The notes under the pieces are model-generated. The model was given only the letters and a program-made list of their open reading frames with translations. It was not told the origin of the DNA and made no database searches. Position numbers and translations under genes: made by a program. Shown here piece after piece: positions 25,426 through 53,401 of a stretch of DNA of 64,000 bases. This DNA comes from Marsupella aquatica (lineage: Eukaryota > Plantae > Marchantiophyta). Each line of letters starts with the position of its first letter. The first letter of the stretch is position 1. Location of the stretch: NCBI GenBank assembly GCA_973895155.1, contig OZ316891.1:964143-1028142 (forward strand), in the 5' to 3' direction.

Positions 25426-25572
25426 AAATGCCTAAATTGTACCTTAAATGCTAAATATATTTTACTTTCTATGCAGTCTGCTAAATTGTAGAGTCTATCT
25501 AAATGCCTTTGTACCTTAAATGCTAAATATATTTTACTTTCTGTGTAGTCTGCTAAATTGTAGAGTCTATCT
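25426..25572 (+). repeat. ~72-bp tandem duplication just upstream of the PHD ORF
   Basis: TGTACCTTAAATGCTAAATATATTTTACTTTCT.TG.AGTCTGCTAAATTGTAGAGTCTATCT occurs twice. Confidence 0.9.
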
Positions 25573-25583
25573 CATGCGCAGGC

Positions 25584-26856: not shown

Positions 26857-27729
26857 ATGGAGCCTGGGAAACATAGAAAGTGTGACCACCCAGCAGTGTT
26901 TACAGGGGTCAGAGCGATTTTGGTCCATGGCCAGCATGGGTTGACCAAAGTGCATTGGCCAACTGTACAGAAACGATTCTCTGAGCTCCATGGCACTGTA
27001 GTTCAGGACATCACTCCAGAGACTACACATGTTGTTGCAGGGACATGGCTATCAGTGATAAACAAGTGGTCATGGTCCTACATGAATTCTGCAATTACTA
27101 AGCAAGGCCTAAAAGTAGTTGAGGCCTCTTGGATCACAGATTCCATAGCACATAAGATTGTACAGGATACTGAGCAATATGAGTTGTGGGAGGATGAAGA
27201 AGCTACTGCATCAGCTTGGGCTGAACAAGAAGTCTGGGAAGCAAAGGCACGGCTTGCTGATCTCCAATATGGACCTGTACTCAACAAAGGACAGAGCTCT
27301 ACAAGGCTGAAGAGTATGTTGGCTGAGGAGACGAAGCAACCAACCCCCATTCCGAAAGGGCTGAGCATGGTATTTGTGGAGGCGGGAATTGGAGAGGTTA
27401 AGTGCAAAGTGTACAAGTCCACAGTGCTTGACCTAGGTGGGACAGTGGAGGAGAATATAACAGAGGACACCACTCATGTCATTACTAAGTCATATCCCAA
27501 AGCCTGCCGCAAATTTGGGAAGGGAGACATTCGCTTTTATGTCATGTCCCATAATGTGTTTGTGGTTTCATATGCTTGGCTTGTGGAATCAGTAGCAGCT
27601 GGGAAGCGTCAAAACCCAATGGACTATGATCTTTTTGAGGCCTGGCCACGGAAGGGTCAGGATCCTTACAGAGAGGACTATGAGACAACAAGTGAGGAAT
27701 GGGTCATTAGCGATTCTGAATCAGAGTGA
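26857..27729 (+). CDS. Tandem BRCT-domain protein, CACTA cargo (~290 aa)
   Basis: Two repeats: HGTVVQDITPETTHVV...VVEASWITDSI...Y and GGTVEENITEDTTHVI...VVSYAWLVESV...DY. These carry the BRCT signature GG, THV and W..S. Acidic tail. Confidence 0.85.
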   Translation: MEPGKHRKCDHPAVFTGVRAILVHGQHGLTKVHWPTVQKRFSELHGTVVQDITPETTHVVAGTWLSVINKWSWSYMNSAITKQGLKVVEASWITDSIAHKIVQDTEQYELWEDEEATASAWAEQEVWEAKARLADLQYGPVLNKGQSSTRLKSMLAEETKQPTPIPKGLSMVFVEAGIGEVKCKVYKSTVLDLGGTVEENITEDTTHVITKSYPKACRKFGKGDIRFYVMSHNVFVVSYAWLVESVAAGKRQNPMDYDLFEAWPRKGQDPYREDYETTSEEWVISDSESE

Positions 27730-28160
27730 GGAGTAGTAGCATCAGTTTGGACACAAGTTTTTTTGTATAAATCAGATCATTGAAATAAATGTGATCTTTG
27801 AACTAATGTACCTTGTTATGGTTGGTGGCAGTTGGGCTTATTTTACTGTTGGCGGATTGTTGTTTCCTGCTGCCTGGGGGTGTCACTGTAAACGTACATG
27901 CAAAGGCGGTACATTTGAGGACAGCGGAGGAGGTGGTGACACCCTCCAACATTTAGGAATTTTGTGTCATTCACTTGACAATAGGTACACTACTTGCGAA
28001 CCTGTTTTTTTCTTTTGGGGTGGTTTAGGGTGTGAGAATTTAGTACACGTTATGTTAACTCTTTTGGCAGATACAGTCAGGGATATATGGAACACAAATA
28101 CCACCATTAGGCATCCTTGTTCACTGCTGTCCATGACTGCAGAGCTCCCAGCCTGTTACA

Positions 28161-31100: not shown

Positions 31101-31891
31101 TAATGCTGTGTGGTTGTTCGTTTAGGGAGTATGAGTCATTGAAGGCGGCCCATCCCACTGCAGGAACAACTTTTCCAGGTTTCATGGAGTGGATCAGAGT
31201 GGCAATTAGAGAGCATCACGAGACCCACCCAGACATGGATGCAGATGTTTACCTACTGTCTAATGCCCCTAGCCTGAAAGTGAAGACTTACAAACGGATG
31301 AGAGCATATGGGAATCACTTCCGAGTGAAGGATGGTGACAGTGCCTATAGGGTGACGAATGACTGCGGGCTCATCACTGTATTTGAGCAACAGAGCCACA
31401 ATCACGACAGGGCCTGGATGGAGATGGGATATGTGGGAGAATTAGTTGACATATGGGCTCTGGACTATGGGGCGGTGTCCAGTCCTGTGATTCTTATGAA
31501 AGGTTCATGGGTGCGGCAGGATTGGCTTGGTAACAGGGCTACCATGAAGAGAGACAACGACGGTTTCTTGCTGGCCAATTTCAGAGGGAAATTGCCCGAA
31601 TGGTCTGAGCCATTTGTGTTTCCTAGTCAGGTGGAGCAAGCTTTCTTCCTGGATGTGGAAGACTCCCCAGGTTGGCGTGTAGTGTGTCATAAACAGGCCA
31701 GGCAACGTCGGATGGAAGGATCAAACCTTGAGTTTCATTTACACTCTCATAGTGCCTTTGATCGTCGGCGTTCAGACCAAGTGCCTGTAGTTCATGATAG
31801 CCGGGACTTCATTCCTGTGACAAGGGTAGATGCATTTGCTGAAGGAGGCGAATTCAGAGATGCAGATGCCAACAGTGTGCCTGTGCCATGA
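28161..31891 (+). pseudogene. tnpD: CACTA TnpD transposase (Transposase_21, DUF4218, DUF4216), frameshifted near 29612; introns ~29984-30107 and 31009-31125
   Basis: Motifs MRCPCAIC, IHACPDGHVLFRKEY, RNVRLGLSLDGVNPFG, YNLPPW, IDVMHIEKNICES, MKSHDYH, PPAFFDVMTHLLVH, RWLYPLERYM, PEASMAKGY and EPFVFPSQVEQAFF. The TI-DYPA motif is split by a frameshift. Confidence 0.93.
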
Positions 31892-32046
31892 GTAATGTGA
31901 ATTGTTTGCATGGACATTAGTGAGGGGAAGGATGTGTAATAAAGTAATTCTGAAGCAACACAGATGTATGGATGGATGCCTGGTGATTGTGGTTGCATTG
32001 TGTTATACGGGGTGACCATAGATGACATGTTTTTGTGGTCCAGTAG

Positions 32047-35000
32047 GATGGAATAGAGTGACACGGAGATGTGTGAGTATGAAAGGAAAGCTATGGAACA
32101 ACGAGCATACATGAAAGCCAAAATCGCAGAACTGGATCTGGAAAAGGATGTGGCTGAATTGTAAGGGAACGATTCTCAACTACACCCCTCCGCTGAGTTT
32201 GTGTGACATGAATAGTTCAATGTGGCACTGAAATTGTGACTATATTCTCATATTGGAATGTCGCAGAGCCACAGCATTTTCAAAGAAACAAAAGGAGTAC
32301 GCAAGAAGGGTGACCAGCACTATCTCTGGGCCTGTGCGTCGGAGTGACAGGTTGAGCAAGAAGGTCGTACCTACAATGGCAGAATGTGGAGATGACATTG
32401 ATGCTGCACAGGTGGGTGCAGACACTAGACAAGAAGATGCAGATGATGAGTATTTTCCAGAGGAAATGGATGAGGATGGGGGTTATGAAGATGAATACAT
32501 TGCAGAGCAGCCCCAAAAGAAACAGGTAAGTAGTTTTCCCAACAAGGTTTTGAGTTACTCTTGTTTAGAGGTTTCATATGTTCAGTACTACACATATGTA
32601 CCTTGCTTAGTTCCTGACATTGTAGTTGGTGATGTGATGCAGCGTCCTGCCAGTTCTGTTTTGCCTTTGAAGCCTGTGCATGCACCATACCAGCAGGGGG
32701 GCTGACCTCTGATCAAGGTTGGCGAGGTGGTAGTAGTGGTAGATCCCAGGCTGGTGCCCAATACTATGGCAGGGGGCAAGCTCTAGGTTATGCCCGTGGT
32801 AGAGGCAGAGCAGGTCCAAACCCACAATCTCGTGGGTATGGACGTCCACCTCAACCATGGGGATGTGAGTATATATCTATATGCCAGTTCTTTGTGAAGG
32901 CATGGCACTCCTGAATTTCAGACTGCATATCAATTTTTGACATTGTTTGGGATGTATTGGATTCAGACAACATGAAATTCTGTCCACCTGCCATTGCATG
33001 CAGATTCTGCCCAACCTGATTGGGCAAATGCTAATAATGATCAGTTCCAATGTCCACAAGGATAGACATGGGTTGAACCAGGTTGGGAGGATGGTGGTGG
33101 GTCGTGGAATGAACAAGGTTGGGAAGGTGGTGAAGGTAATTGGCAGGGATATCAAAATTCAGTACCTACAAACGCTGGAAGAGGGGCAGGTAATGTCTGA
33201 TCTTGTCAGCAATGGAAGAACTCATTATATGTGAGTCCATTCACGTGGGGGGGACTCTGCACATGTATAATGATAGAAAATGTATGTGTGCAGGTTGGAC
33301 AGTCGAACCATCGACTCAAGTATTCACTAATGCCCCTATGCAGATGCAGCACGGAAGGGGGACAGGTATGTCGGTGAATGTTCAGTTGTTTTCCTACAGT
33401 TTGTACTTAGTTTTCAGTACATATGTTTGCACACACATACCTAGAAAGTGACATCATCCGGCCCCTGTACTAGGCTGGACAGGTGGTCCAGGGTCGCAAC
33501 AATTTCAGAGTGCAGTCCCTGCACAGGCATCTACAGGCAGAGCTACAGGTATGTATGTTTGAAGAATTTTTCTTGAAGTGAAGCATTGAATGTTGCCGTC
33601 ATCCATTCTGCTATATGTAGTTGTCAAGCATGAATGGCATTGTATTTTCCCAGGTGGCTTCAGAACCCCAGGTAGGGTGAATGAAGGGGTGGCCAATACA
33701 ACGCCCAGTACTACCGAGAGCAGTGCACGAGGGGAGGTGACAAAGAAAGGGAACGTAAAGTTGAATGAGAGACAATGGGTGGATGCTGAGTGTCCTTGCA
33801 AGAACCGATGGCATGCTGATTTGAAAGCTGAAGTATTGCGTTGGTTAGATGTGAGTGTTATTAATTTTAAAAAACAGCATCCAAAAGATTGGAAGACTGT
33901 ATGTGAAAATGTTGCTGCCAAATGGAATTATATGGGCAGTGATGATGGCGTGGACATAGGTTGCCTAGAGAGTACAGCAGGTAAAATCATCAAGCAAGAG
34001 AGGTGGAGAATGCATAAGGCTTGGAAGGAAGGTGGGGAGAAGCCAGATATGCCTCCACCAGCCAGTTGTGATGATAAAGTGTGGGCAAGGTTAGTAGCTT
34101 ATTTTGTAACAGATGCTTCAAAAAAGAAGAGTTCACAGATGACCGAGGCCAGGTTGAGTGTTCAGAACCCTAATCTGACAGGAAGGACCGGCACTGCACC
34201 GACAGCTAAACGTTTGGTAAGAATGAATGGCCCAGCTATGTAATTTATGCTACACTATGTACTGTTTTTTAGTGTAAACCCATACATGTAAACTTTGTTT
34301 TTTAGTGTACGTTCCCTGAATATTGATCGATAACTTGTGTTTGCCATGCATGTGCAGAAAGCCCAATTGGGGCAAAGCCCTTCAAAAGAAGAGTTGAGGG
34401 CTGAAATTGTGAACACCCGGGCTCAAGAGGGTGCATCTGAATCCTCCAAGCATGTAAGTTATATGAGTTCTGATTGGTAATTGAATGACCTGCGTTGAAT
34501 TTCAGGTGTACACTGTGTGCATATATTGCCCAACATTTCATATGGAGTGATTGAACCTATACCCCTGTGTCATGTAGGGAGGTGGATCTCACTTACAGAG
34601 ATAAGTGGTCATTTGAAGGCTGTCAAAACATGTCTTCCAGAGATCAATGAACGTTTGAATTCATTGACTGACTTGTTCCATGTGAACTTCAAGACATTAA
34701 TGGAAGCTGTTGTGTCGGTGAGAGATAAAATTGATTCCAATTCTGCAGGAGTTCCACCATCACCACTTGAGGTGGCAAAGTCGATGCACTCTTCTGGCAT
34801 GCCAACGACATGTAGGCTTGAAGGTAAGGCCTTTACAACTGTGTGGGATATGATTATTAAATGTATAGTTTGAATTGACATTGTTTGTTGAATGTGTTAT
34901 TTTCAGTAACATATATTGTGGTTGTTGTGTCCATAGAGAATAAGACAGGTGCTACAGAGAAGAAGTATGAGAACCTGGCAAATACTCGCTGTAATTTAGA

Positions 35001-35733: not shown

Positions 35734-38700
35734 CAATGTCATGCCATTATTTGTTTGTAGTGTGAGTCATGTTATGTAGATTTTAGATGTCAAGAAGCAG
35801 TACAAGAATCATGTCCTCTTGGAGATTCATAGTATCATGCATGTGCTTTCAGTTATCTCATCCTACAGTCATCAATTATGAGTTCCTGTTTTGTCTGAAT
35901 TACATTGATCACATTGTAAACTATTCCATTGGAATTCAAATGATCTTCATTTTTTAGCAAGATTGTGATTGTGTTTAATTCTTATGAATGTTTTATGTAG
36001 GATCTGCTTATATGATGCTTTGTTTCATGTGGATGTCATTCATGCTATGTTCATTTCTTGTATTCAATGTGTTATATTTCTAAAGTTAGAACATCAGGTT
36101 TCTATGTATTGTAATGTCGAGTGCTCTCTCTCCTTATGAACTGTCCCTCTGTGTTCATTAGTCATGGTTATAACTTGCATGTGAACCTTATTAGTTATAA
36201 ACATGAGTATATAGAGTCCCAAATGGTTCTGTTGTGTGACGCGGGCCAGGGTCTCCATTGGTCTCTCTTGTGACACTAAATAGTCACACGCTAGTCGTTG
36301 TTGAATGCGGGTAAGTCATGTATGTGACTTACGATGTGACTCGCTGAAGTCATATTGCAGTCACGTCGAAACAAGGCTAGACTCCACAATAAAGTCACAG
36401 ATCAGTCACAAATGGGTATCAAGCAAGTTGCAAAGCCCAGTATCAATAGTGACTTCCATTTTTTGGTCTCAACTTTTGCAACTCCAAGGGTCACAGCGTG
36501 GGTCAAGTCACGTTGAGTCACAATGAAGTCACATGAGCCAAAATGAGTCACATATTGCGGTCTCAGTTCACCTCGGATTCTTCTAGTGGAGGTAAGGGCA
36601 AGATATCAAGGAGAGGGCAAGATGTCGAGGTGAGGGTAAGATTTTGAGGCAATGGTAAGATTTTGAGGCGAGACAAACATGGTTGTGCATTGCAAACATG
36701 TAATTCAGGCAAACATGTAATTTTAGTAAGGTAAAGAACTACTCATTAAAAGCTGGGGTTTTTAGGTGGATCAAACTCAAATATTGGATTTTCCATAATC
36801 CTTTCTTGCCCATTTCATGTGAAAAGTGTTGTCAATGCGGAGACCTTGTTCAATATAGCACAATCATGAAATTATGTAATCAAGTAATGTAATTCAAGTG
36901 AACGCAAAAATATGGGATAAGGCGCAAATGGGTAATGAGAGTACATGGGCAAGAGTTAGGTAAGAAATCCTTATTGTTAATGATACAAAAGATGGAACAA
37001 AAGACCGGAAAAAAGATGCAAATGGGGGCAAAGAGCTGGTCTCCAGACTTGGGAAAGGATTAGGGCAAAAGAAAGACTAATAGAGATGAGGGGGCATGTC
37101 AAGCAATACATGTCTTGTGGAGAAAAGATGTTGGGAGCTTGATATTCTTGGTCTTCATTAAAAATGCATTTTTTGAAAAGATTTTCAAAGAGAATGTTGG
37201 AGATATAGATGGAATAACAAATTTGGGACCGATCTTCTATACAACAAAAAACAAAAATATAATCAAAACATGTAAAAAATAGTGGACTTTGCTTTTGCAT
37301 TTTTAATTTATTTTGGAAGTAGATGTTGTTTTGTTGTGAAAACTATATTGTTGGGGAGAGCAAGGATGTGGGAGGGTGAGAGCTAGTGCAAGAGAGATGA
37401 TGGCCCCAGGTGCTTTGATACTATTGGGAGGGGAATATTTTATTTTTTTCTCTCCCATTTTTTCCCATTTTTACACTCCTATGCAACACCATTACTCCCT
37501 TTTTTTTACATTGGCACCATTAAATAAACAGAAAAAATGCACAAAACATGATGTCGGACCTATCGAGAAGGGTGACCACCCTTCTCATTTTTCATGATCA
37601 ATTTTTTTTCTAAGGCATGTAAAACCCGATACAAATTGTGCATTCCAGAAAAATAGTCATCCATGATTAGGAGGAATGCAAAGATCGATACGGGTATCGA
37701 CCTTTGCACTTGTAAATTCTTTGGTTATCAGAAATTTACAGAAATGGTGAAACTGTGCATAACCGCGCAGTAGGCTCTAACTATGGTTAAGTTTAACTAG
37801 GGTTAAGCTAGAAATTAACCATAGCTACCTCCAAAAGTATAAATATGACTGCCCGCTCATGGAAAGAAGTTTCATTTTTTCAAGTCCTCTTTCACAATCA
37901 AGCTCTCACCCAACCCAAAGAAAACCTCCTCTCCATACAGATGCGCATTCTGGTCTTAAGAGTAAGCTTCCACTTTCCAAAGCAAACTGTGATACTCGTA
38001 TCATAATCAGCTTTGTAGAAAGCAACTTGCGATACTTGTATCATAAGTTGCATTCAAACCTAAGTTTCAAACCCTCAACAATACAGGTATCGCTTGGTGC
38101 ATTGAGCCAACTCAATTAGTCTTATGGTGCAGGAGTGAAAATACTTCAATCATGGTTTAGATTCTGTCTCTTGAAGATTGTAAAGCCGTTTGCTGCTCAT
38201 CTCGCAGTTCTTCATATTATGTTGGGGCCCTTATTTTCTCTTGGGTAGCTGTTGGTCGGATCCGAAAGCCAATAGCGATACTTGTATCACTCTTTGGATT
38301 GAGTAGTGTAGATTTAGGACGGACTGCACTGCAAAGATCATTGGACTGGGTCACTCGTGACCTCTAAGGTGGACCTGACAAAACCCCACCTAAACAAACA
38401 CAAATACTCTGTTCCGTTCGCTTACAAGCAAAAATGTGCCCAACAAAAGTTGGGCTCGACAATCTTTTGAGTGCCCAAAGAGTGACGGCCTCGTGTCTAT
38501 ATATATCCTCTCCCATACAATGTTTCCCATTTTTTCTTGTCTTTGTGAGAGCTCGTGTGAGAGATTTTGGAAAGGAGCATTGTTTGGCTAGAGAGGAGAC
38601 TGAGGACGTGGTGTGGCCTGGCTGATTCAAAAAGAAATAGTTTTACCCTGTAGGCAGCACCAGAACAAGTTCTAGAGGCGGCGCAAATGAAGACAGTGCG

Positions 38701-39764
38701 AACCATGGTTTGTACTGTGAAAAGGATTTGGTCTGCTTCTTGAGTCATTTCCCTTAGTTGGTTTTGCACAAATAGTTTTTGAGGCATTCCGTGTGGCTTG
38801 TGAAAGACATATTAGATAGTCGTATTGCTTCGAGTAGGAGTCTTTGTGTTTTGTCATCTAAAGAGGAATCGGCGGATGGATTGGAAAGTGTTGGCCCAAT
38901 CCGAAAGCAAATTGCGGTGCTTGTATCTCTCTTGGGATTGAGTCATGTTGTTCTCAGAATTAAGCTGAATTCAGTAATCCCAGTTAAAACATCATAAATT
39001 AACTAGAGACTCCATTAGAGCCTGCAATCTTGTATCTGTAGCCCGATCGTGGATTCATGGATCCTCTTGGGGGTTTGTAAGGTGTTGGCTTGTTAAGAAA
39101 GCAAAGCTTGTTCTCTCGTTCTTCTCTCTTTGCTCAATGGCAACATTCCCAAAGAGCGGAGGAAGACTTGCAAGTCTGAAGGACTTAGAATTCATCGCTG
39201 TCGATTTGGCCATTCCCACAATAACAATCATGACATAGTACTTGCTCAAATTGATGCAGCCAAAGGGCGACGAAGGAGAGGACAGTGAGTTGATCGTAGT
39301 CACCACCGGCAGAGAAGGAGTTGCAGCTTGTCATGTCTGTCAATCTATCTTTCCTTTTGTTCCAATTGTTTTGTAAGTTGCTCTTTTGCATTGATGCGGG
39401 CATTGGCGATTCTTCTGCGATTTTGAGTTTTGAGAAGCAGATTAAGTGATCAAATTGATAGTTTACATTGATTGCCAGTATCGTCGGCCTTTCTTCATTT
39501 TTTGAGCTTCCTGAGCTTCAGATTTGACTCACCGGCACTACATGTCATTGTGCAGATGGACAACGATAGCCTTGACCCTTGCTGGATTAGAACCACATGA
39601 GAATCGATAGCAGCTCCCAACAGACGCCCCTGCTCAAGGTTCTTGGACCCAGTAGAAAGCAACTTGGATGCCGTATTCAGAAGAAAGCAAAGCACGATAC
39701 TTGTATCGCTCGTGGGATTGATCAAGCAGTGTAGATCTCAAATTTGATCTGCCAAAGGAAAACA

Positions 39765-42700
39765 ATGGAAGGAAGTGCAAGGACAGGGTCTGCTGAGATC
39801 GAGAACCTCATGACAACTTTGTGTAATGTGATTTGGATGACAGAAGATATTTGTGATGAACAAAAGTTTGTGAGGAGACCTTGGTACTTTCGGGATACTC
39901 GAATGATGTCCAAGGAAGCAGCTGACTGGGAGACACCCGTTCTTTGGGTTCAAGTGAAGAAAACAGAGAAGATTACACTCTCCTTTGGTCCAGTAATTGG
40001 GGTTGCCGCATGTGACTTTAAGAAGGGTCATGGGAAGGAAAAATCTGTCGCTATTGGATTGAGCTTCCTCACAATGTGTGGAAGCAAGGGTTTTGTGGCC
40101 CTTGTCATGGACATGGATTTGTATGATCTCTCAACATTAGACAAATTTCCCGAAGACCCTATTGTGAAGGAAGTTGCAAGTACAATTGAGATGGAGATCT
40201 TCAAGCCTGAGTGGGTTGCTAATGTTGTGGATGATTCGAGTCCTTTGATGCTGCCGTTTGTCCAAAAAGAGTATAAGAGACTCGTGGGTGAAGAGTTTAA
40301 ACCCACACGAAGGATCAAAGTAAGGAAGCCAACCATTAGCGGGAGTGGTGCATCTTTAGTTGCAAAAGGAGTTGATTGTGCTAGTGGGAGCGGGGGACAT
40401 GGGAAAGGGAATTCCCAAGTAGAAGCTACAATGAGAGTGATTCTAGGTGAAGCACCTCAATCTGTAGAGGCAAGCCCAGGCGCTACTGCAAGTGTTGGTC
40501 GTGGTCGAGGTCGTGGTCGTGGAAGAGGTCATGGAAGGGGAGTTGTGGATGAATTGGTACCTGTCGAGGCAGAGGTTCCATCGCCATCAACTTCACTTGC
40601 AAAGAAGAAGAGGACTGGTTGGATTGGAGGCACAGGAGTAGCTCTAGCTGCAGATTCAAGTGGTGCAATAAGCACTCCAGCTGTGTCAATGCATCAATCC
40701 AAAGAACGATTACCCCTTACCTCAGGTCCAACCTCAGCTGTCGTTAGCATTCCCCTGGTAAGTTTATTTGTCTAGAAAAAATGAATGTTGGGAGCGATAC
40801 TTGTATCGCGCATTGCATTGAAATAATGAAAATTATGGTTTGCATTTTGAATTCTTCTTAAAATTCATTGCAAGCCATGTTATTTTTCAGGGAGATGAGG
40901 AAGAAGAGACGCCGTTGGCTTCATTTGAGACAGATGCCATCAAGGCTGAACTTGCAAAGCTCATGCTTGAACGCAGAGTCCAGAGGACCAGTGTGCTTCC
41001 ACATGTCAATAATCTCATTTTTGAAGATGAGGGTGAGAATTCAACTTTAGTTAGACCTGTAGATCGGCTACATGTAGAGAACATCAAAATGTTGCTCATG
41101 AAAAACCCTTCCAACTTCACGGCTCCATTTGTTGTTGTAGTTGATCCAACAGATTGTCCCACAATTCATGAGTGGGACATTACTAAATCTAGGGTATGGA
41201 AGTATCGAGTAATTGGCGGTAATCATGGAGCTCGTGCAAAGGCTGAACTTTTCAAAATGTATGGAAAGCAAGTGTACGGTGAGATTGAGGCATGGGTTTA
41301 CTCTGGTCTAACGAGACATGAGATCAGGATGCTGGCTTTCCAGCATAACTACGACCAGGAGTACCGTAAAACCATGACATTGATTGGCAAAGTTCGTGCC
41401 TGTCACAATATTTTCATGGAAATGAATGTGGGGTCAACTAAAGAGGTGCGAGAAGCTTGTTGTAAGGAATGTATGCTTGATTACACTCCAGGTGTTCGTG
41501 ACTCAATGGCCAAACATGACCCTACATTTCAGATTGCCTTTCGATCTGGGGAGATTTGGGAGCTCCAAGATAAATTTTTCTCTATGTGGCAAAAGTTTGA
41601 GATCCTTGGTCAAACAAAGCCAATCGTGGCCAAGCAGCCGTCAGCAACATCAAAAGGTAAATCAAAAGCTAAACCTAAACCGCTGAGTGCAAGTGAAATC
41701 AAAATGAACAAGCTCTCTGGGCATTTCAATTTGAGGGTCTTCAGAGCTCTCCAGGGGCTTTCCAATCAGGAGCATGTGAAGCGACTCCTAAACAGAGTAA
41801 TTGGAAAGAAAATCACTCTAGAACAAATGTTCAAAGAAGGTGAGACACTTAAGAAGTTGGCAAAGGTAAAGAAATTGTTCCTGCAGATTTCTGGTCAAAA
41901 AGATTGGGCAACATGCCGGGAAATGTTTCCCCAGGAAACTGATGTGAAAGTCCTTTCAACTTGGTGCGAAAAGCTCATAGAAGCAGTAAGCACAATGTCC
42001 TTATGGCCTTTTGTTTTCAGTTATATATATTCAAAGCAAACATTTGAGATATTGAATGCAGGTAGTGTTACTTGTATCACTGGTGGCATTCAAAATTTGT
42101 GTTTGGAAATCTTACAAAGAGTTTTGTTTAATGTGCAGTTCAAAATCAGTTCAAAGAGGAAGAAAAAAGTCATTTCTGGAAATGAATTTGATGAGGGCGT
42201 GGAGGTCGAGATTCCTTCATGCGACATCCCCTACGTCTTCAAGAACTATGTTCTTGAAGCAATTGAAAAACACAATCGGAGACTGAATATCTCATCAATT
42301 GCTACAGCTTCATCTCAACATCAATGGAAGAATGCAAATGGAGACGCATTCTCATATTCTATTCATGTTGGAGATATTCGGAAACTAGAAACCTTTCTAG
42401 AGCCAAAACATTTCACTTTGGCAATTGCAGACATCCCGTACGGTTTCAATGCCCCTGGTTCTCAGTTTGACGAGGAACCTTTCACTGAACAGGATGTAAA
42501 TGAGATGGTTACTAATTTTGCTAAAATCACCACCTCTCCATTGTGGAGGTTTGTTGTGATCCATTCCTTGCAGCAGACAAATAGCGTTATGAGCGCACTT
42601 GAGAAGGTTTGCAATTGCGGAGTTGAGGCCGGTATATATGAGAAGACAAACATCCATGAGCACCCTTCTGGGCCAAGGCTAGCTTGGGCCTTTGAGAACT

Positions 42701-43119
42701 GGTCAATTGGTTATTACAGTGAGGATGGAGTCCGAAAGAAGGAGATGTACAATTTTGCTCCTGATGAGTCCAGGGTGAACATTGTGAAAGTTCCCTGTGT
42801 TACTACAAAGTCTATGAGTCCATTAGGGTTTATTGTAAACCCTTACCAAAAACCAATTGCATTGGGTGATTGGTTTGTTAATCATTTCAGTGAGAAAGGG
42901 GACTGGGTGGCAGACCTTTGTTGTGGAACCGGGTCAACATTGGTGGTTGCACTTCTCAACTCTCGGAATGGGTGTGCTGTTGACAAAGGTGAGACTCAGG
43001 TAGAATTTTTGAGGAGTCGGATTATGACATTGGAATCTGTTTGGACTCTATACGATGAAGCACAAGTGTCCGGTGAAGGTGGCCAGGGACAAGAAGTTCA
43101 GCCTCCGGTTGGTGGGTAG
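39765..43119 (+). CDS. ParB/Srx-like domain + beta-class DNA amino-methyltransferase (N6-A/N4-C) fusion; exons 39765-40757 and 40891-43119, with a probable in-frame intron at 41986-42138
   Basis: ParB-like VRPVDRLHVENIK...PFVVVV...YRVIGGNHGARA...EIRMLAFQHN. The MTase region has GDIRKL..FTLAIADIPYG (motif IV), NPYQKPIAL and GDWVADLCCGTGSTLVVAL...GCAVDK (motif I). Catalytic-before-SAM order indicates beta class. The phase-0 GT-AG intron joins the two ORFs. An RG repeat lies in the linker. Confidence 0.88.
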
Positions 43120-43419
43120 TTGGGAGTCATTGGTACTAGCATTTATGTGGATACTGATGACTAGGAGGAGCCTGAAGAAAATGAGCCAAACATTGAAGAA
43201 AAGCTACCTAGAACACCGGACGACGGGGAACTCAATGATATGTTGTTAGATTAGATGTGTGCAATAAAACTATTGAGGATTTATCAAGGCTTTCTATTAA
43301 TGATTGAGAACCTTGATAAACATATCTCTATTTGAGGTTTGAAATGCAATTGGCGATACATGTATCGGATGTAGCATTCCCAACAACATTCCTACCTATC
43401 TGCACTTTTCCTACTCTAA

Positions 43420-46400
43420 CTAGTCACAGTCATCTGCATCAATGATTTCCGTGTCAAGCATTGCTGCTTGGATGATTCGCTTTGTTTGTACTGGAAGCGT
43501 GTTGTTTGAGAGCAGTGCAAAATTATATGCATAAATTGCAGTTTCTGAGAGGCACAATGTGTCCTCAAGTAACTTGTTAGAGGATGCAACTTTTTCAGGG
43601 TAATATTGACCTTCCATAGCAGACCCTTCTCGAGAATCCATTGTATACCATACAATTTTGATGTTCTCTGGAACATCTTGTACTTTGGATAGAATATCTA
43701 TGACTTTTGCCATCCAAAATGGTCTGCTGTTTGGATCCCTATATGCAGCCACGCAAATCATTGCATATTTAGTGTTCACTTCAAGATCTTTGAAGTCTCC
43801 CTCGACTGCTTTCTTCTTCCTTGTTCCAGAGTACATGACTGTTGTTGCACCTGCAATTTTATCTAGCAAGGCTGGCTCTATTTGTGGGGGAAGTGCATTT
43901 CTTGGAGTCTCTACTCCAATATTTGATTTTGGCCACGTCCAATCAAAAACCCATTGTCCTGCCTTCAAGTGGTGTTTAATCACTTCTTTCTGGTTGTCAA
44001 AGAAACGGAGCCACCAAAGTTTATCCTCATCATCAAAGTAATTGAATCCATCTTCAATTGATTTGCGATATTTCTCCAGGACTGCAACATGGTTGCAGAG
44101 AAGATGCTCGTCTCCATTGCCTCCGTCATCATGTTCATCATTCTCCACTGTTGCTCCGGTTGTAGATTTCAATGCCATTTGTGCAGCAACCCACATGGTA
44201 GATGTGGGGATGTATCTAAGGAACTCCACTGCTTCTCCCCAACTTTGAGTGCTAGAAAGATGCTTTGCGTGAAACAAAGTTGAAGTTCCTCCATTCTCTC
44301 CTACAACCCTCTTCATCCTAAATTGCTTTTGACCACTAATACAATGTAGAGGACACAAAACATGCCCAATACCTCCCATGTCATTGGGTTGGTCTTTATC
44401 CGACACAAACTTCTTGAAATCAGCAACCTCTTCAACAAAGATTATCTCAGCCTTTGGATTGTACGAATCCTTGAGAATGTCTGCAAGACTATCCACCCGA
44501 AAAGCTTTTTGCTTATTTAATTTTGAGGAGAACTTGCTGAACATTTGGTCAATCTGATCATGGGTATGTCCAACCAAAAGAAAACCAACTTTGATCTTTT
44601 GGAAAACCCTCATCTCAACAAGCATATTCAAATATGCCATGAGAAATTTATTTTTATTTTCTCGAGGGGTATTATCAAGTTGTAGATACAACACTAGAGG
44701 GAGTGGACCTTTCCAACTATTTAAAATATGTTGGATCACATGCACTGTCAAGTTGGTGTCATTGTGAATGTTTGGATAATTCAAAAACACTTTTGATGTC
44801 AAATGTCCATTGAACACCAAACAACCCACCACATGTACCGGAATAAAGTACTTCTCGTCCATGTTTTTGGGGCACCTAGTGAAATGTGGCAACTCAGTCT
44901 TTTTTTGATCCATACCATCAATGCAGATCCTCAAATATTTTTCTGGACTCTTATAGCACTTGCTTCGGTGCTTTGCTAATTTCTCCCTCTCAACTCCTTG
45001 TGCTTTCCGATGTTGGTTCAAAAGTGTTGAATATTTTCCTGTCAAATGAACATCAATGTTTTTGTCAATAATAACCGCATCACCAAACCAAACAAGTAAA
45101 TAATGTAGTACTTAACATCAATCCTTTACTTATTTAAAGGTAGACACAACTTACGTTTTTCTGCTTCAAGTACTGCTTTGTCGCGAAGTGCTTTGAACTC
45201 TGTGCAAGGACCGCATGTGGAGAAGCGACTCTTTTTTGGAATACGCACCCTGGGGAACTCTTTGTTCCAGATGCGAACAAACCAAGAATATGTGATCTCG
45301 GTTTCCTTCCGCACCATAGTATCAGTCTTGAAAGCATCAAATACTTCAGCTTTCGTCCAATTGTCTGGTAAGTGGAAGATGTCCTTGTTTGGAAGACTTT
45401 CAACATTTGACATGAAAAACTCATTCAACCATTGAACTAGTGAAAGATGAGTAACCGATTTTTCCTTGCAAAATGTGTCATTTTGAATACGAGAAAACGT
45501 ATTCCTTGAGATTCTCTGCAGCCGATTATTTCCAACGGAAAATAATTTCTTGAAACCTTCTCGAAAAAAAGATCTCCCGTCAACAATGTAACCGGTTGGA
45601 CCACCGTGCCCACTTTTCAAACAGCCCCTTAGAAGTATGTTCTTCTCGGTCGATGATAAGCCATAATAGAAGGTCCGGTGTTTTGTCACTAAATCTAGAC
45701 CAAAATATCTCAAACACAAATTATCACAACATGGGTACTTAAAAACTTCTTTCATTTTTTTTGTCTTTAAATTTTGATTTGTAACATTATCTTTCCTCAC
45801 AAGCTTGTCTCTCACTTTCTTGCTAAGCTCCTTTTGTTTCTCCATACTGTGAAATCCATGGAGTGAATTTTCACTCTCTTGTCTCTCTGCAACTTCCAGA
45901 ATAGAGCCATTAGTATCTTTTGAGCTACTATCATCTGAAGATAGAGTGGGATTTCTCGGATCACTAAAGAGATGACTATAGCTACTCTCGCCCTCATTTG
46001 TTTCCAAACATTCTGATACAACTTGTGCAATGGCTTGCAACTGTCTATTTTCCTCAACATCTTCCTCCTCACTTGACTCATCAGAAAACACTATTGGACT
46101 TCTTGGTTCTCTGTACATAATTTGGACTCCGCTAAAACTAGTGAGGCCTCGTCTAGCAACTTGAAGACGTCTAATTGGCTGTCTAGAAACACTCCTAGTT
46201 GCAGAAGTGGGTCTAGCGGTCATCAATGGTGTGTCTTGATTGTTCCCCAAACTTGTATTGTGTACACGAGCGGCTGCCATTGGTCCATTGATTGGAGAAG
46301 CATCGAATAATCGTTGTACACATCTCCCCACTGCAATTTGAGATTGCGTAGATTCTGGACTTTGTAGTCCGTTGTCTTTGCTGTTGCTGGGAACCAGTTC

Positions 46401-46961
46401 TCTTTGACGCAATGCAGACGGCGATCCACGTATCGTTGTGTGTATTGTACCTTGCGTTCTCACGTCTGTCCCAAGAAATATCCTTCGCTGCACCTGTGGC
46501 AAAACTGATTCCCTCAAAGGCAATGCAAATGGCGATACACGTATCGCTGTTTGCATTCGACCTTCTCTTCTCTCCTCTGGCACCTGTTGGAAACTTGAAG
46601 CGTCAATTGGAGATCCCAATCTCGTTGCCAATACGCGTATCGTCTTCTTGATTCCTTCACCATACCCAGGGATAGACGGTCTAAATCGACGTCTAAAACC
46701 TAAACCTTGGATAGAAAGCTTTTGCATCCGAGGGGAGGGAATGTTTAGGAGCCGACGTTTATCAGGTTTACTAGGTGACACATAGTAAGCCCCAGGTTCT
46801 GGTTCAGAACTTCCATCAGAATCAGAGTCCGATATTTTGGGTACACTCTGTTGAGAAACTGGGAGTAATTTGCGAATATGATTTGGCAAACATCGACGAC
46901 CATGAGGACCACCATTGGGGGAGGACTCAACTGAACTGGAGGGCGACCACTCTTTAGACAT
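43420..46961 (-). CDS. Sola1-like/DUF7869-type DDD transposase, intact; exons 46961-45155 and 45038-43420 (~1141 aa)
   Basis: Motifs CIDGMDQKKTELPHF, LYLQLDNTPRENKNKFLMAYL and GFLLVGHTHDQIDQMFS. Upstream there are Cys motifs CCDNLCL and FSTCGPC and a long disordered N-terminus. The intron rebuilds an R codon in frame. The 4-bp TSD fits Sola. Confidence 0.85.
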
Positions 46962-48844
46962 GGCTAACGTATAACTAACTCTATACTGGTGGGCATTCCT
47001 GTCACAAAATGCTCTTATATGCTCAAAAAACTCAAATAGACGCATAACTTTGTGAAACAAAATGGTGCAAAAAACTTAGTCGGCGTTGATGTATTTATAG
47101 TTTTTGGTGACCCTGAGCCACGTGGCTACTTCTGATTGGTCAGCCGCTACACGACAAAATAGATTGGGTGATTAAAAAAGGTTCAAATTAGTGTTTTAAC
47201 GACAAAATTAATGTACATGTTAAGTGTTTCCTCCGGGGTGGATGCAATTTTTATTCTATTTGGGATATTGTACTGTGGGTTGCTTTAATCAACCATTGAG
47301 ACAATTTGGTTCTAGATGCGATACAAGTATCGCTTTTTGCATTTTGGGGTGATTTTTTCAAATTGGTCCTGTAAAAGGTGCACATATTGTGCTTTGGAGT
47401 TATGTACCATAGTTTTGCTGATTCACAATCACTTTTCACGATGGTTAGGCGGAATGGTTACCATGATTTTGTCACTTAGTTTACTTTCTGGTTAAAAGTA
47501 GATCAACTGCGTTGAACTGTGTAGTAAATTTTGGGCAACTATGATGTAACTTTTCAAATTGTTGATAGTAAATTTTTTGAAAGGAGAGGTTGAGCTACTT
47601 TTGGAGTATATTCTCAAATGATGAATGTGGTTTGCGATACGAGTATCGCTAGTTGCTTTCCTTTATGTGTTTGGGTTTGGAAGCAAAACTATTATGTGTA
47701 CAAGTTGACGGAAAATAAGGATTTTCCATGTTGGAAACAAAGTTGAACGTTGTCAACAACAAACAGTACATTTTGGAAGTTTAAATATATATAATGAGGT
47801 AGTCTGTGGGCATTGCTCACCCCTTCAATGAAATCCCATCTACGATACAAAAATGTAACTACTGGGATATTGCGGAATTTTGGATGGCTATTTGTGTCAT
47901 TTCAACAAAATTGGCGAGAATGAAAAACACCCTTCTCTATGTGCGGAAATACTTCTCAATTGGTCCGAAATCATGTTACAACTAAATATAGAGAAGAAAA
48001 AGAAGAAAAAGAAGAAGAAAATTAACACATTTTCCTTCCTTCTAGAGTCTCACAGGCTCTGTAAAAATCCAAAATTTCTCATGCCCCAAAAGATTCTCCC
48101 ATCATTCGTGTGTACTTTTATATTTAAGATGATATCACATAAGTATCTTCTAATATACGATGTCAGATCAGTATCGTCTACTATACTTTGTATTTTAGTA
48201 TTAAAATGAGCATATCATTTGACATACCTGGTCAATCAATCCAAGGGTACAAAACAATCTTTGAAAAAATCTGACGGCTCAGGTTTGTTCCCTCCATTTC
48301 TGAATTTGTAAGCGGACGAAAGAGCTTTTTGGCGGCATTGCATATTATAGAAGTAGATAAGCATTGGAAAGGTTTTAACTAATGAAGGTACACACATGGG
48401 AAGGAGAAACTTTGGGGTTGACAAACTTTTTGGATTTTTTCATAGAGTATAATCATGAAACTTTAAAAAGAAGCAAAATGGATTAATTTTTCTTTTAACC
48501 CCGTTTTTTTTCTTCTCTTTATTTAATTTTGCATTTTTTTAGTATATTTAATGGTGCCAAAGGTAAGAAAGAGGGGGAGGAATGGAGTGGCGAGGGAGTG
48601 AAGAAATAGGAATTAAAGGGGAAGAGAAAAATTAAAATGCTCCCCACCCAATACCATTGTGCGACCACACCTTGACCCTGTAAAGCCATCACCTCTCTTG
48701 CACTCCCTCTCACCCTCCCACATGCTTGCTCTCCTCAACAACATAGCTATCACAACAATGACAACATGGTCGCAATAACATTTGAGATGTTTAAACAATT
48801 TTTTTGCCCTACTTGCATTTCTTTGCATTGTTTACATTTTTTTG

Positions 48845-49969: not shown

Positions 49970-52369
49970 TCTGCAGGGGCCTGCTATAGTCATAATCTGC
50001 TCTCCTGAAAAGTCTAGCCGGTAACCTCTTTCCGGGCAGGAGTTACATACGCTAGTGCAGGTCTGGGCTGGGGTTATAGAATTTAACCTGCTCCCGGAAT
50101 ATTCAAAGGCGCTTTCGGGCTACCTGTGGTCAACTTCTTTTCATAGTTTTCATAGTCCGGAGGCAAGGTTACAGCCTAGTCACCCTGCCCACACCTACAT
50201 TACCCTATACATAGCGCTTGTGGGTTACAGAGTAAAATATTCCGTGAGCGAAGAGGATTCGTGGGAAGCCAGTGACTCCGTGACACCATGGTCTCCTTCT
50301 TTCTGGGCTTCTTATCACTACAGGCCTGCAAGTCCACCTGTTGTCGACTCGACCGGCAGCGAGGGTTGTTGCAAAATCCACTTGCTCACTCGACCGGCAG
50401 TGAAGATTGCTGCACTGGACAGAGTTTGAATCAAGGTCTGGATCAGTCTCCTTTGCTGGATGTGTGGATCGAACCATTCGACGAGGGTTTCACACAATTG
50501 CCTGAAATTTGACATTTCGGCTGGCTTGCAGATCAGTCTGGGAGCTTACAAAATGAGGTACGTTACATGTCCATAACCATTTGACCACGCTCAACAGAGT
50601 GGACGATGATACTGATTGAGGATGTTACATATCCCTTGTTGTGCTTTTGGCAAAGCTCTCCTTCTTCGAAGTATGTTGACCGGTTTTTGGCTTCATTGCT
50701 TCGTTCGAGATATCCATGGTACTGAAGAAGGGATAAGATGTTCATGAGTGATTTTTGTTCGGAATGCTGCCACTAGCTTTGATTCACTGAGGTACATTCC
50801 TGTTTTCATGGCTTTTGCTTGAATTTATGACACTGGCCATTACTCATCGACTGCCTTCAACGCAACTGACATTTCATAGATTGATGGCACTGGAATCCAC
50901 GCAGGATCGCCGACTGATCGAGGAAGTGCCCTTGAAGTTCCCTTTCAACTTGATAGCTTGGTTCTACTAACTGTGCAACGGAAGGGTACTTCCATGCCGC
51001 AGTCACTTCGGGATCGACTACTGAGGAAGCTCGAAGTGTCAGTTAACAAGCTCGGGCTAGCTGCAAGAGAAGAGCCATCGGAAATGCCAGTGGGAAGTTG
51101 GCAGCTGCCAAATCGTCGGGCACTACTGCCGTCGGAACCACTGCCGTCGGAACCACTGCTTGAGCATAAGATTCCAAGGTTTTCATAAACTCCACGCAAG
51201 TATTCTCTTGACACCCAATTCATTTTGACATTGCTTCTCGTGATATTTCACTGGATAGTTTTAACATTTTGCTTTTGCTATGCAAACGTACTTCAAATCT
51301 CTTCGCATCAGTCAATGATGTGTCCCGAACTAGTGCTCACAGAAGTGAGGCCTACTCGTCAATTCGATGAGGCAGTATCGAATCGTCCTATTCGTAAGTT
51401 TGTCACATTCGCTTGAAGAGAAGCAGATCCGGTCAAAGTGAACGCAGTGAACTGATGTACCTTACTATCAGCTCCAACCTTTTGTCCCTTAAATCTGTTT
51501 CATCTACGGCCTCTAGTTGGACCATGATCTCCGCTTCGCCTGTTTGTAGAGCTTCTCGTTTGTCCTTAGAAAACATATTTTTGCCACAAGAGTTCAACGT
51601 TTCAACGTTAATACTAGGTTCCTCTTATGGGTCTAACAGTCTTTACAAACCCACCGTACTTTAGTTCAGGGGATGGATCTGTCGTGTTTTCGAAGTTGTC
51701 ATCGGCACTTCTAGGAATTCAAGACAATAAAAGATCGTATGTACTTCTCTGTTTTTTGGCGAGCGTCGTGAAAGCCTTATTCCAAATAACCTAATCTACC
51801 GCCCTATATATTGCTTTCCTTCTCAGGATCTTGGGTGGCTCTGTGATGAGAACCAGCAGACATCAGCCGCTTCTCTTACCCTGCCGGTTGGTTTCTTCTT
51901 CCAAAGTTACTATCGTTTACAGAGTATAAACTTTAACTAAATTTGTATTATAATTTAGGTTTAAACCTGCCTCGATAATTATTGACTAAAGAGTAAGCCA
52001 ATTAATTTTTGACTTGTTATTCTCTCTTTCTTTCTCTGTGATTGTTAAATTTGACACTGTAAATGGTAGATTTCAGACAGATTCTTCAACACTTCTTAAG
52101 TTTAGGGCGTTGTTTCGGACACCCGTCACCAGTTTTTTTGTTTTCATGCCTTTGACAGATGAGCTACAGTAGCTAGAAGCTTGTGAACGGTGTTTGGATG
52201 GAGTCCATCTTCGAAAATCAGCAACAGGTATGCAAGGGGTAGATCGTTGATTCCCTTGGCCAGTTCGGAATTATGTGTCGTTTCCTCAGTTGCTCTGCAG
52301 GAGTACTCTCCAAGGAGGCAGAGTAGATAGAAGACACGAGGAAAGTTCCGTTCCAGGACTGTGGCGGAA

Positions 52370-53401
52370 ATGGAAACCAATCCGTTTGCCATGGGGAAGG
52401 CGAGAATAGAACTTCTGCAGATCAAATCCGATGTGAATGAAATAATCGATAAGAGAATTCATTCTATCGAGACTGCTAACCGTGAAGAGAGGATGGCACT
52501 AAAAGCTCAGGTTGCAGAGGAAAAGGAACTACGAAGGTCTTCTGAAACTGCATTGCGAAATCAGATAACCTTACTGGAAAAGGAGCGAAACGTTGTTTTA
52601 GTTGATGTACAGATCAAGACGAGGGAATTAGATTCTATGAGAATTATGCAGAAGAAAGCTGAAGATGAGCAAAGGAAAAGAGATCAAGATTTCGCAGAGA
52701 TGAGGAACTTATGGCAAGCGGATAAGCAGAAGCTAATTGCAGAACAAGGTGCATTGAAGGCGGAGATGGATGCTAATCTGTTGTCATTGACTAGCAAAAT
52801 TAGCGGGCTGCAAACTGAACTCGAGGCATCAAGGGCCACAACGGAAAAATACTTAACTTGGTGGTATGAGTCTAGAACGGAAGAAATCAAACTACGGCAG
52901 CTAAAGCCGGAACTACGAGCACAGAAGGCCAAAATCAGACAAGCGGAAGTCAAACTACGAGCAGAGAAGAAGCGTCGGGAAGTTTCTCAAGTCGAACTAC
53001 GAAGGGAGATCAACATAAAGCTAGAAGATCTAAACAAGCGTGTACTAACTGCCGTCTCATCGATAGTCAAAATACGAGATAAGAGAAACGAACTGCAAGA
53101 AGCAAACGAAGATCTAGGAGCTGCCCAAGATAAACTACTGAAGGAGAACAAAAGACTCCGAGACGAGAAGAAGAACCTGGCAGCTGCTCATGAGACTGCG
53201 ATCCAAAACATTGTACAAGAAGAAAGAGAGAAAAGCATGTGCCAGATCTGTCTGGACTCTCCAAGAGATACCATCTGTCTGCCTTGTGCACATTTCAATT
53301 ATTGTTTCACCTGCCTCTCAAAACATAGACGGCGAAGTAGAACTTGTCCTACTTGCCGAATTGTGCTCAGTGGCATACTTAAATCCGACATTACTTCATA
53401 G
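52370..53401 (+). CDS. Coiled-coil + C-terminal C3HC4 RING E3 ligase-like protein, intact and intronless (~343 aa)
   Basis: A long E/K/R/L-rich heptad region is followed by CQICLDSPRDTICLPCAHFNYCFTCLSKHRRRSRTCPTCR. Confidence 0.9.
   Translation: METNPFAMGKARIELLQIKSDVNEIIDKRIHSIETANREERMALKAQVAEEKELRRSSETALRNQITLLEKERNVVLVDVQIKTRELDSMRIMQKKAEDEQRKRDQDFAEMRNLWQADKQKLIAEQGALKAEMDANLLSLTSKISGLQTELEASRATTEKYLTWWYESRTEEIKLRQLKPELRAQKAKIRQAEVKLRAEKKRREVSQVELRREINIKLEDLNKRVLTAVSSIVKIRDKRNELQEANEDLGAAQDKLLKENKRLRDEKKNLAAAHETAIQNIVQEEREKSMCQICLDSPRDTICLPCAHFNYCFTCLSKHRRRSRTCPTCRIVLSGILKSDITS

Follow-up and report, generated by a model that had tools for sequence, protein, structure and literature searches.

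A DUF7869 transposon in the liverwort Marsupella aquatica carries a gene for a predicted ParB-like–methylase fusion and an array of palindromes

We analysed a stretch of 64,000 nucleotides (nt) from the liverwort Marsupella aquatica (GenBank assembly GCA_973895155.1, contig OZ316891.1, positions 964,143 to 1,028,142 of the forward strand), hereafter called the window and numbered from its first letter. Positions 37545-47977 make up a discrete 10.4-kb DNA transposon with precise ends, as seen both in the window sequence and in contigs from public sequencing runs. The element holds two convergent genes, one for a transposase with a DUF7869 catalytic core and one, on the opposite strand, for a protein that joins a predicted ParB-like module to a DNA methylase module and that we call the helper. 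In addition, it carries 15 copies of a palindrome that was not found in the remainder of the window.

The left end begins AACATGATGTCGGACC at 37545 and the right end, once reverse-complemented, closes at 47977. The terminal inverted repeats (TIRs) map to 37545-37570 (plus strand, starting AACATG) and 47952-47977 (minus strand); 23 of 26 positions are identical between the left end and the reverse complement of the right end, and the termini read AACATG...CATGTT. Both ends are directly flanked by ACAA (37541-37544 and 47978-47981), a 4-bp target-site duplication (TSD), and this 4-mer is present as a single copy at an empty paralogous site, located on an inverted copy of the flanking repeat at 48403-48767 (minus strand). 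Specifically, the flanks joined without the element align gap-free over the junction to 48767-48403 (73.7% over 369 bp, E 3.9e-53). The element is thus inserted into a high-copy repeat that is locally duplicated in inverted orientation, and it occupies one of the two arms.

To survey copies, Logan contigs from four public runs were used (X1 to X4, covering two organisms and two studies). These contigs span the entire element at about 99% identity, with approximately 0.6-1.1% differences in X1 and X2; in the latter two runs, contigs start exactly at 37545 and contig matches stop exactly at 47977. In X2 and X4, position 37544 is joined straight to CTAAATA..., the sequence found 3' of the right ACAA, as is expected of an unoccupied site. 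Contigs that start or end exactly at the limits of the element, together with the empty-site contigs, show that it is multi-copy and precisely bounded. The element is young, with several near-identical copies at different sites and with unoccupied paralogous sites. Contigs of all four runs pass through both helper introns with no splice joints, so that the runs look genomic. Four other runs (X5 to X8), searched at 80% likeness, gave mostly short transposase-core pieces of other family members and were uninformative on the palindromes.

These data bear out an original prediction, made by a model from the sequence alone, of a sharply bounded 10.4-kb element with an ACAA TSD, as judged by the ends, the flanking ACAA and the exact contig limits. 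The empty site, which that prediction had placed on the opposite foldback arm, is confirmed by the gapless alignment as well as by the X2 and X4 contigs. Of the TIRs, the predicted length of 26 bp stands and perfect identity does not. As for the insertion-target repeat (37000-37544 and 47982-48500), in the runs examined its summed contig depth exceeds that of the element by a factor of about 3-10; it forms a local foldback with 48403-48767, related pieces occur at 18750-19032, and an (AAG)n run lies at 47990-48028.

The transposase gene is predicted to have two exons on the minus strand (46961-45155 and 45038-43423) and to encode 1141 amino acids (aa), being convergent with the helper gene. 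Its ATG is at 46961-46959, with a TATA-like ctataaata upstream at 47100-47091. Exon 1 (45155-46961) comprises a non-conserved Ser/Arg-rich N-terminus and a conserved part at 45737-45155. A predicted GT..AG intron of 116 nt (45039-45154, phase 1), free of palindromes, joins the two frames covered by homologues, and exon 2 (43420-45038, with the stop at 43420-43422) contains the catalytic core, matching Pfam DUF7869 at 1.2e-48. This is the sole Pfam family recognised on the transposase, and a literature search for the term DUF7869 returned zero papers. Homologues with E <= 0.001 number 91, and those with a named source come from two ferns (Ceratopteris and Adiantum), a liverwort (Riccia, many copies) and amphioxus. 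Across 24 aligned sequences, D146 and D188 do not vary, and D185 and D231 hardly do (numbering of the open reading frame, ORF, 43420-45111). The candidate acidic residues of the core are D65/D68, D146 and D185/D188, the first Asp (D65/D68) having been chosen by eye; this pattern is compatible with a DDD-type core and is not proof of one. A DDD definition of Sola transposases is reportedly due to Bao and co-workers, in 2009.

The helper gene, on the plus strand, is predicted to encode 1022 aa in three exons (39765-40757, 40891-41985 and 42139-43116, with the stop at 43117-43119). The introns of both genes were predicted from GT..AG limits, a kept reading frame and exon limits common with relatives; in the helper, these limits recur in the related loci described below, and the first residue of exon 3 is the same in three of them (L001 to L003). 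Exon 1 (39765-40757, ATG at 39765, 331 aa) encodes a conserved domain of about 180 aa (39765-40355), 29-35% identical in L001, L003 and L005, after which come RG-rich and basic stretches (GRGRGRGRGRGHGRG and KKKR). No family match was obtained for this domain, for which Atlas gave sub-threshold bacterial clusters alone (best 0.84), and an AlphaFold model from a 4-sequence alignment had no confident fold (predicted local distance difference test, pLDDT, 42). Predicted intron 1 (40758-40890, GT..AG, phase 0) contains a palindrome at 40796-40807, and predicted intron 2 (41986-42138, GT..AG, phase 0, 153 nt, in frame) contains one at 42067-42078; relatives have 2-5 and 2-7 motif copies, respectively, in the corresponding introns.

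Exon 2 (40891-41985, 365 aa) is predicted to comprise a ParB-like N-domain (aa 30-160, 40978-41370), a helix-turn-helix (HTH)-like part and terminal helices. Its structure was modelled from an alignment of 37 sequences with a pLDDT of 87.7. When this model was used in a Foldseek search, all 11 matches at E <= 0.001 were Noc or ParB chains (E 1.5e-5 to 3e-4, best probability 1.00). Structural alignment with VIA gave Z 9.8 to Myxococcus ParB (7bnk_B) and Z 9.4 to Caulobacter ParB (7bm8_A), with a root-mean-square deviation (rmsd) of 2.3 over 96 residues, followed by KorB (Z 8.0-8.1) and the sulfiredoxins (Z 6.2-7.4). The HTH-like part, model residues 161-321, aligned to the Spo0J-parS HTH at Z 5.8 with an rmsd of 4.2 over 97 residues, which is below the safe level of the tool for helical parts. 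At the alignment position of ParB box II lies the sequence GGNHGARA (41215-41238).

A two-copy model of exon 2 scored 0.38, against 0.00 for the best control, and passed the mark of the tool. Of the proteins solved as same-chain pairs, 21 of 30 attain this mark, as against none of 23 solved as single chains. At least 29% of the contacts agreed between runs, with a partner pLDDT of at least 63, and the predicted interface is symmetric and lies within the ParB-like N-domain. Among eukaryotic proteins with no older solved relative, the mark was reached by 1 of 7; since dimers of ParB N-domains have already been solved, the pass of exon 2 may reflect likeness to them.

Exon 3 (42139-43119, 326 aa and the stop TAG) is a beta-class amino-methylase, in which motif IV precedes motif I and the catalytic and SAM motifs are intact. 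Motif IV is DIPY (D98-I-P100-Y, 42430-42441) and motif I is DLCCGTGST (D259-LCC-G263-TGST, 42913-42939), the latter preceded by QKP; D98, P100, Q237, K238 and P239 are invariant in 17 sequences. The exon matches Pfam PF01555 at 7.9e-8 (33.0 bits, cut-off 26.7), a family that 13 of 24 long helper homologues pass at E 0.01, as well as the phage family phrog_67 (4.6e-12 over aa 36-296). Searching the PDB with a 17-sequence profile retrieved N6-adenine enzymes, namely 8urk (5.6e-12), M.RsrI (2.7e-11), DpnA, MboIIA and CcrM (2e-9), with weaker matches to N4-cytosine enzymes (3.4e-7 and 1.3e-4). On the basis of the Asp of motif IV and of the stronger matches to N6-adenine enzymes, the target base is probably adenine, at N6. 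In all four lineages (the window and L001 to L003) exon 3 is open and keeps both motifs, with 61-75% aa identity and dN values of 0.16-0.30; dN alone is reported because dS is saturated. By this comparison, the methylase motifs appear to be under purifying selection in each of the four lineages.

All together, these data agree with what had been proposed for the coding content of the element. Two convergent, open genes with introns (predicted in both cases) had been put forward, and both frames are open and match N6_N4_Mtase and DUF7869 in Pfam. The N-terminal module, proposed as ParB/Srx-like, models as ParB with an HTH part, beyond a merely Srx-like fold, and the C-terminal beta-class amino-methylase of the original prediction was recovered from the family match, from DIPY lying before QKP...DLCCGTGST and from N6-adenine enzymes being the closest solved relatives.

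The palindromes were mapped by searching the window with GATACNNGTATC, allowing at most one mismatch. All 14 matches fall within the element (37687-47647) and none in the other 53.6 kb, compared with a chance expectation of 1.31 matches (largest 5), and none of 100 shuffles reached 14. A degenerate 15th copy with the same flanking arms is found at 38916. The full unit is about 38 bp long, GAATGCA-N5-GCGATAC-NN-GTATCGC-N5-TGCATTC, with arms of up to about 18 nt per side and a variable spacer that is also self-complementary in several copies; in several window copies, self-complementarity beyond the two boxes is poor (22-26 of 44 positions). Seven copies lie upstream of the helper gene, in the left subterminal region 37687-39707 (cores at 37687, 37991, 38031, 38080, 38277, 38916 and 39696), one in each helper intron, one in the spacer between the convergent genes (43355-43366, a position at which relatives have 2-4 copies), three in the N-terminal frame of the transposase (46423, 46534 and 46630, within 46423-46641 on the minus strand, spaced by 111 and 96 nt) and two in the right subterminal region upstream of the transposase (47320 and 47636, within 47320-47647, from the pattern search). 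The unit is absent from the TIRs.

The three coding copies are read in the same frame, giving peptides ...TIRVLATRL, ...TAIRVSPFAL and ...TTIRGSPSAL, and their spacings are multiples of three, as in a frame-preserving triplication of a site-bearing unit. An intron at 46705-46381, which would excise these three palindromes from the transposase N-terminus, was considered and rejected, for it breaks the frame. Along the helper gene, the internal copies at 39696, 40796, 42067 and 43355 are fairly evenly placed, 1100, 1271 and 1288 bp apart.

A word-indexed protein search with the helper ORF gave no match among 4717 candidates, and an exhaustive protein search gave 514 homologues. Those that are full-length and have a named source belong to Chara braunii, Ginkgo, Riccia sorocarpa, Adiantum nelumboides and the sea cucumber Holothuria. 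In Riccia sorocarpa, the locus tags of the helper homologue (R1sor_010796) and of a DUF7869 protein (R1sor_010795) are adjacent. The named homologues in Chara, Riccia, ferns, Ginkgo and sea cucumber indicate that the family is widespread in streptophytes and reaches animals. A metagenome scan yielded five related loci (L001 to L005), 49-57% identical in exon 2. The exon order 1-2-3 is found in L001 and L003, while L005 comprises exons 1 and 2 and L002 exons 2 and 3; a convergent transposase lies 3' of the helper gene in L002 and L003.

The pattern CGA[GT]N6[AC]TCG has 11 matches in L001, 6 in L002, 20 in L003, 4 in L005 and 0 in L004, against a shuffle expectation of 0.02-0.34 per locus. All of these matches but one (40 of 41) are non-coding, being located upstream of exon 1, in intron 1, in intron 2 or after exon 3. 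The outer box GAATGC is common to the lineages, and the inner box is CGATAC in the window, CGAGAC in L001, L002 and L005, and CGATCC in L003. The L003 unit, CGATCCAAACATCG, is asymmetric, having GAATGC on one side alone, and occurs singly and in both orientations. The positions of the motif are thus kept across lineages whose proteins are 50-65% identical, each lineage having its own core variant. From these comparisons, the conserved object is the two-box half unit GAATGC-N6-CGAKMC, rather than self-complementarity as such, which favours recognition by a protein over a pure hairpin role. As a separate observation, intron 2 of L003 (3010-3400) is nearly filled by seven asymmetric units in both orientations, some of them tail-to-tail around GCATTG...CAATGC.

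With regard to the repeats, the original prediction had counted about 14 copies of one palindrome in the element, which is what the 14 matches and the degenerate 15th amount to. A correction concerns three of these copies, which are not in non-coding DNA but within the open N-terminal frame of the transposase. The prediction had also named, as a check, whether related elements lack the methylase or the motif, and the outcome is in its favour: the motif was found in four of the five loci, and the methylase exon in all three loci that extend to it.

Transposons of comparable design have been described in algae, and they are cited here, like the other published systems below, from the portions of text that were available. 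Sola1-1_Ec32 of Ectocarpus, of 21.5 kb, encodes a 1104-aa protein with ParB-like and DNA methylase parts on the strand opposite the transposase, has a 4-bp TSD biased to end in A and finds its best match in a moss Sola1; its authors proposed that the accessory protein attaches to the transposon that encodes it and modifies that DNA (Dinatale et al., Genome Biol 2025, PMC12477816). The element of the window has in common with it cut-and-paste transposition, the 4-bp TSD ending in A, termini starting with AAC, a ParB-like part and a methylase within one protein of about 1,100 aa encoded opposite the transposase (here 1022 aa, in three exons) and the same hypothesis on the helper. It differs in its host, which is a streptophyte and not a brown alga, in its length (10.4 versus 21.5 kb) and in its TIRs (26 nt versus 282 bp), and also in the dispersed palindrome, its intronic placement and its lineage variants, of which the available description of Sola1-1_Ec32 makes no mention, the two elements having been compared by description and not by sequence. 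With respect to Sola1, the element has a 4-bp TSD, ACAA, on both sides and a single copy of it at the empty site; its termini, AACATG...CATGTT, agree in the first three bases alone with AACCG...CGGTT of Sola1-1_Ec32. We call it Sola1-like because it shares with Sola1-1_Ec32 a 4-bp TSD ending in A, AAC termini and a helper gene.

In red-algal Plavaka elements, PAG3 combines an N-terminal ParB-like domain with a 2-oxoglutarate-dependent oxygenase, and tandem inverted-repeat arrays adjoin its gene (Petroll et al. 2025, bioRxiv 10.1101/2025.02.11.637652). Here too, a ParB-like domain is fused to a nucleic-acid-modifying enzyme, arrays are present, and self-binding with self-modification has been proposed. 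In contrast to PAG3, as far as it is described, the enzyme of the helper is a methylase and not an oxygenase, the transposon is of the DUF7869/Sola1-like type and not Plavaka, which is related to CACTA, and the arrays also occupy introns, being adjacent in Plavaka. Other ParB-linked methylases have been noted in algae and fungi (Iyer et al. 2016, PMC4738411). The original prediction knew of no description of the three-part arrangement of transposase, ParB-methylase and palindromes; that claim is contradicted by PMC12477816 and bioRxiv 10.1101/2025.02.11.637652. The ParB-methylase transposon design is therefore already in print, for algae and from 2025, and the element is a streptophyte member. 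Literature searches, from which figures and preprint supplements were outside, retrieved the two algal descriptions alone and did not find the arrangement in land plants or other streptophytes.

Outside eukaryotic transposons, fusions of a ParB-CTPase fold with an N6_N4 methylase in phages and prophages, and ParB-Tls methylases, resemble the helper in having the ParB fold followed by PF01555 and in residing on mobile DNA, and the helper matches phrog_67 (PMC12704722, PMC4738411). Those prokaryotic fusions have no introns and are believed to function in packaging or anti-restriction, and no site arrays figure in the available descriptions; unlike them, the helper has an additional 331-aa N-terminal exon and the GGNHGARA box. 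With ParB, Noc and KorB and their parS, NBS and OB sites (6sdk, 7bnk, 7nfu, 8qa9), the helper has in common the predicted N-domain/HTH fold, a predicted symmetric dimer and multiple palindromes on its own replicon. It differs from them by the lack of a sequence-level match, the loss of GERRxRA, the lack of a C-terminal dimerisation domain and of a ParA partner, and a site unrelated to parS.

Plant transposons are known to encode proteins, such as VANC of VANDAL21 and TnpA of En/Spm, that bind to motifs, whether dispersed or subterminal, and oppose silencing by methylation. The likeness consists of a DNA-binding accessory protein encoded by the element and of a short non-coding motif with lineage variants; there is no homology, and VANC and TnpA are devoid of an enzyme domain and cause loss of 5-methylcytosine (5mC), whereas the methylase of the helper would add another mark. 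Finally, prokaryote-like Dam methylases borne by retrotransposons have been reported, with the idea that they exploit chromatin marked by N6-methyladenine (6mA) (bioRxiv 10.64898/2026.05.21.726589). They too represent a prokaryotic-type amino-methylase acquired by a eukaryotic mobile element. They are of the Dam type, lack ParB and reside in unicellular hosts with AMT1, and ParB, N6_N4 and PF01555 are unmentioned in the part of that paper available.

The features described above depict a scenario in which a dimer of the helper would read the 15 palindromes by means of its ParB-like N-domain/HTH module, the methylase domain would then modify the DNA of the element in cis, probably at adenine N6, and this self-mark, if TnpA of En/Spm and VANC of VANDAL are taken as analogues, would serve self-recognition, either as protection from host silencing or as control of transposition. 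We give even chances to this full mechanism, namely that the helper binds its own palindromes and methylates the element. As to the reader of the palindromes, it is likely the helper rather than the transposase, because the arrays go along with the helper gene and also occupy its introns, because the TIRs are free of the unit and because the Plavaka arrays lie beside the gene of a ParB fusion, although the two candidates could not be told apart. In Plavaka, as described, the transposase is unrelated and the arrays nonetheless adjoin the ParB-fusion gene, which suggests that it is the ParB partner that goes with the arrays (bioRxiv 10.1101/2025.02.11.637652). A more far-reaching version, in which a nucleotide-gated clamp of the ParB type carrying an adenine methylase loads at about 15 sites and paints the whole element with 6mA, with sites and protein co-evolving by lineage and with a self-written non-5mC tag used to escape or steer silencing, seems to us unlikely.

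Several points weigh against the proposed mechanism. It is proposed on the basis of sequence and predicted structure, and the introns in which some of the palindromes lie are likewise predictions, made from genomic DNA. The assignment of exon 2 to ParB rests on its predicted structure: by sequence, no ParB match came from Pfam (E up to 10), PHROGs, NCBIfam or the PDB profile search, and Pfam ParBc (PF02195) was recognised in none of 24 long helper homologues, nor in the query. The arginines of GERRxRA in ParB box II hold the phosphates of cytidine triphosphate (CTP); they are not kept in the helper, where GGNHGARA is invariant in 8 close homologues. This box is closer to that of the Srx and DndB type. 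Canonical CTP binding by the helper is accordingly doubtful on the sequence of the box, and with GERRxRA replaced, ParB-like CTP-dependent spreading cannot be assumed, so that spreading from the sites would be speculative. Should the helper bind a nucleotide at all, this may be ATP or GTP, as happens in Srx- and DndB-like members; a survey of the ParB fold, in its available text, reports members that bind ATP and GTP, and also an enrichment in phages of fusions between ParB and N6_N4 methylases (PMC12704722). With respect to the sites, the two 5' end regions hold 12 of the 15 copies, as would be usual for sites of the transposase/TnpA type, and three copies are inside the reading frame of the transposase. 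Region-wise identities revealed no co-variation between the HTH part and the motif variant. Scans with the transposase, which covered viral_contigs, found no DUF7869 elements devoid of the helper. Lastly, the link from DUF7869 to Sola1 derives from the TSD, the AAC termini and the shared helper gene and not from a profile match, and the element is a candidate member of Sola1, with which its sequence features are consistent.

The distribution of the sites bears on who reads them. If the palindromes were binding sites of the transposase, subterminal and part of a transposition complex, the ParB-methylase would act independently of them, for instance on short targets common in the element or in the genome. 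The 12 end-region copies are no farther than about 2.2 kb from the left end or 1.6 kb from the right end, a subterminal position that is usual for transposase or TnpA sites in plant transposons, and the conserved Cys-rich N-terminal region of the transposase (45737-45155) could bind DNA. Yet the unit is absent from the TIRs, and relatives have both helper introns and the 3' spacer filled with copies, a long way from the ends. Moreover, Plavaka, with a transposase of an unrelated superfamily, also has inverted-repeat arrays at its ParB-fusion gene, and, as far as the published survey goes, the ParB family is known to bind arrays of palindromic sites (PMC12704722). We give this explanation a low probability. 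Binding by the helper could also serve chiefly a KorB-like function, as a regulator of the two inward promoters or as a tether that holds copies or ends together, with methylation being secondary, directed elsewhere or to RNA. KorB chains are indeed among the structural matches (Z 8.0-8.1), the motif clusters upstream of both genes, and, in the available text, RNA enzymes are predicted among the eukaryotic proteins of related methylase clades (PMC4738411). The purifying selection on the methylase motifs in all four lineages, the DNA N6-adenine enzymes found as nearest solved methylase relatives and the intronic and 3' copies, unneeded for promoter control, argue against it, and we regard a chiefly KorB-like role as rather improbable.

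The palindromes might instead act through their structure, as cruciforms in DNA or as hairpins in the pre-mRNA, in introns and untranslated regions, feeding small-RNA or splicing control. Such a role would suit the long arms (about 18 nt per side), the self-complementary spacer of several copies and the copies in transcribed non-coding parts. It is hard to reconcile with L003, where the unit is asymmetric, single and present in both orientations and where the sequence of the half unit is what is conserved, or with the window copies that are self-complementary at 22-26 of 44 positions outside the boxes, and it appears very unlikely. That the repeats are due to chance, or to some unrelated miniature palindromic element that inserted there without serving the transposon, is scarcely credible: short palindromic repeats can spread by themselves, but 14 of 14 copies are in the element, the other 53.6 kb have none, and relatives whose proteins are 50-65% identical keep the positions, with cores specific to each lineage.

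Self-binding and epigenetic self-modification by transposon-borne ParB-enzyme fusions have so far been proposals in the literature, as far as it was available. Compared with the published descriptions, in their available portions, the present data add the half unit GAATGC-N6-CGAKMC at the same non-coding positions, including both introns, with a private core in each lineage. The two-box unit provides concrete probes for binding and methylation assays, as well as a clear prediction for native long-read methylation calls, and the element, being intact, young (copies about 99% alike) and small, is a good test system. The spread of the family is relevant to the debate on 6mA in the DNA of plants and animals. 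If the reading of the mark as a 6mA self-tag were true, the element would be the first system of this kind that can be tested in streptophytes, a group in which DNA 6mA is disputed.

The remainder of the window contains further genes and mobile DNA. An En/Spm (CACTA)-type gene set lies at 28137-34243 (plus strand), with matches to Transposase_21 (2.2e-44), DUF4218 (4.6e-28) and DUF4216 and a weak one to Transposase_24, 'plant transposase', a content that speaks for a plant host. Upstream of it (25557-27729) are ORFs with PHD (25557-26264) and BRCT (26812-27729) domains, perhaps captured or neighbouring host exons. Downstream of the element, an ORF at 52331-53401 (plus strand) has a C-terminal RING finger (zf-C3HC4_3, 1.3e-11) and is probably an exon of a host gene. 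In addition, a dynamin-like gene (Dynamin_N, Dynamin_M, GED) is present twice, in inverted and diverged copies about 54 kb apart, at 1004-2267 (plus strand) and 55916-58845 (minus strand), and the DNA of their arms, at 1712-2216 and 55925-56429, is 70-73% complementary.

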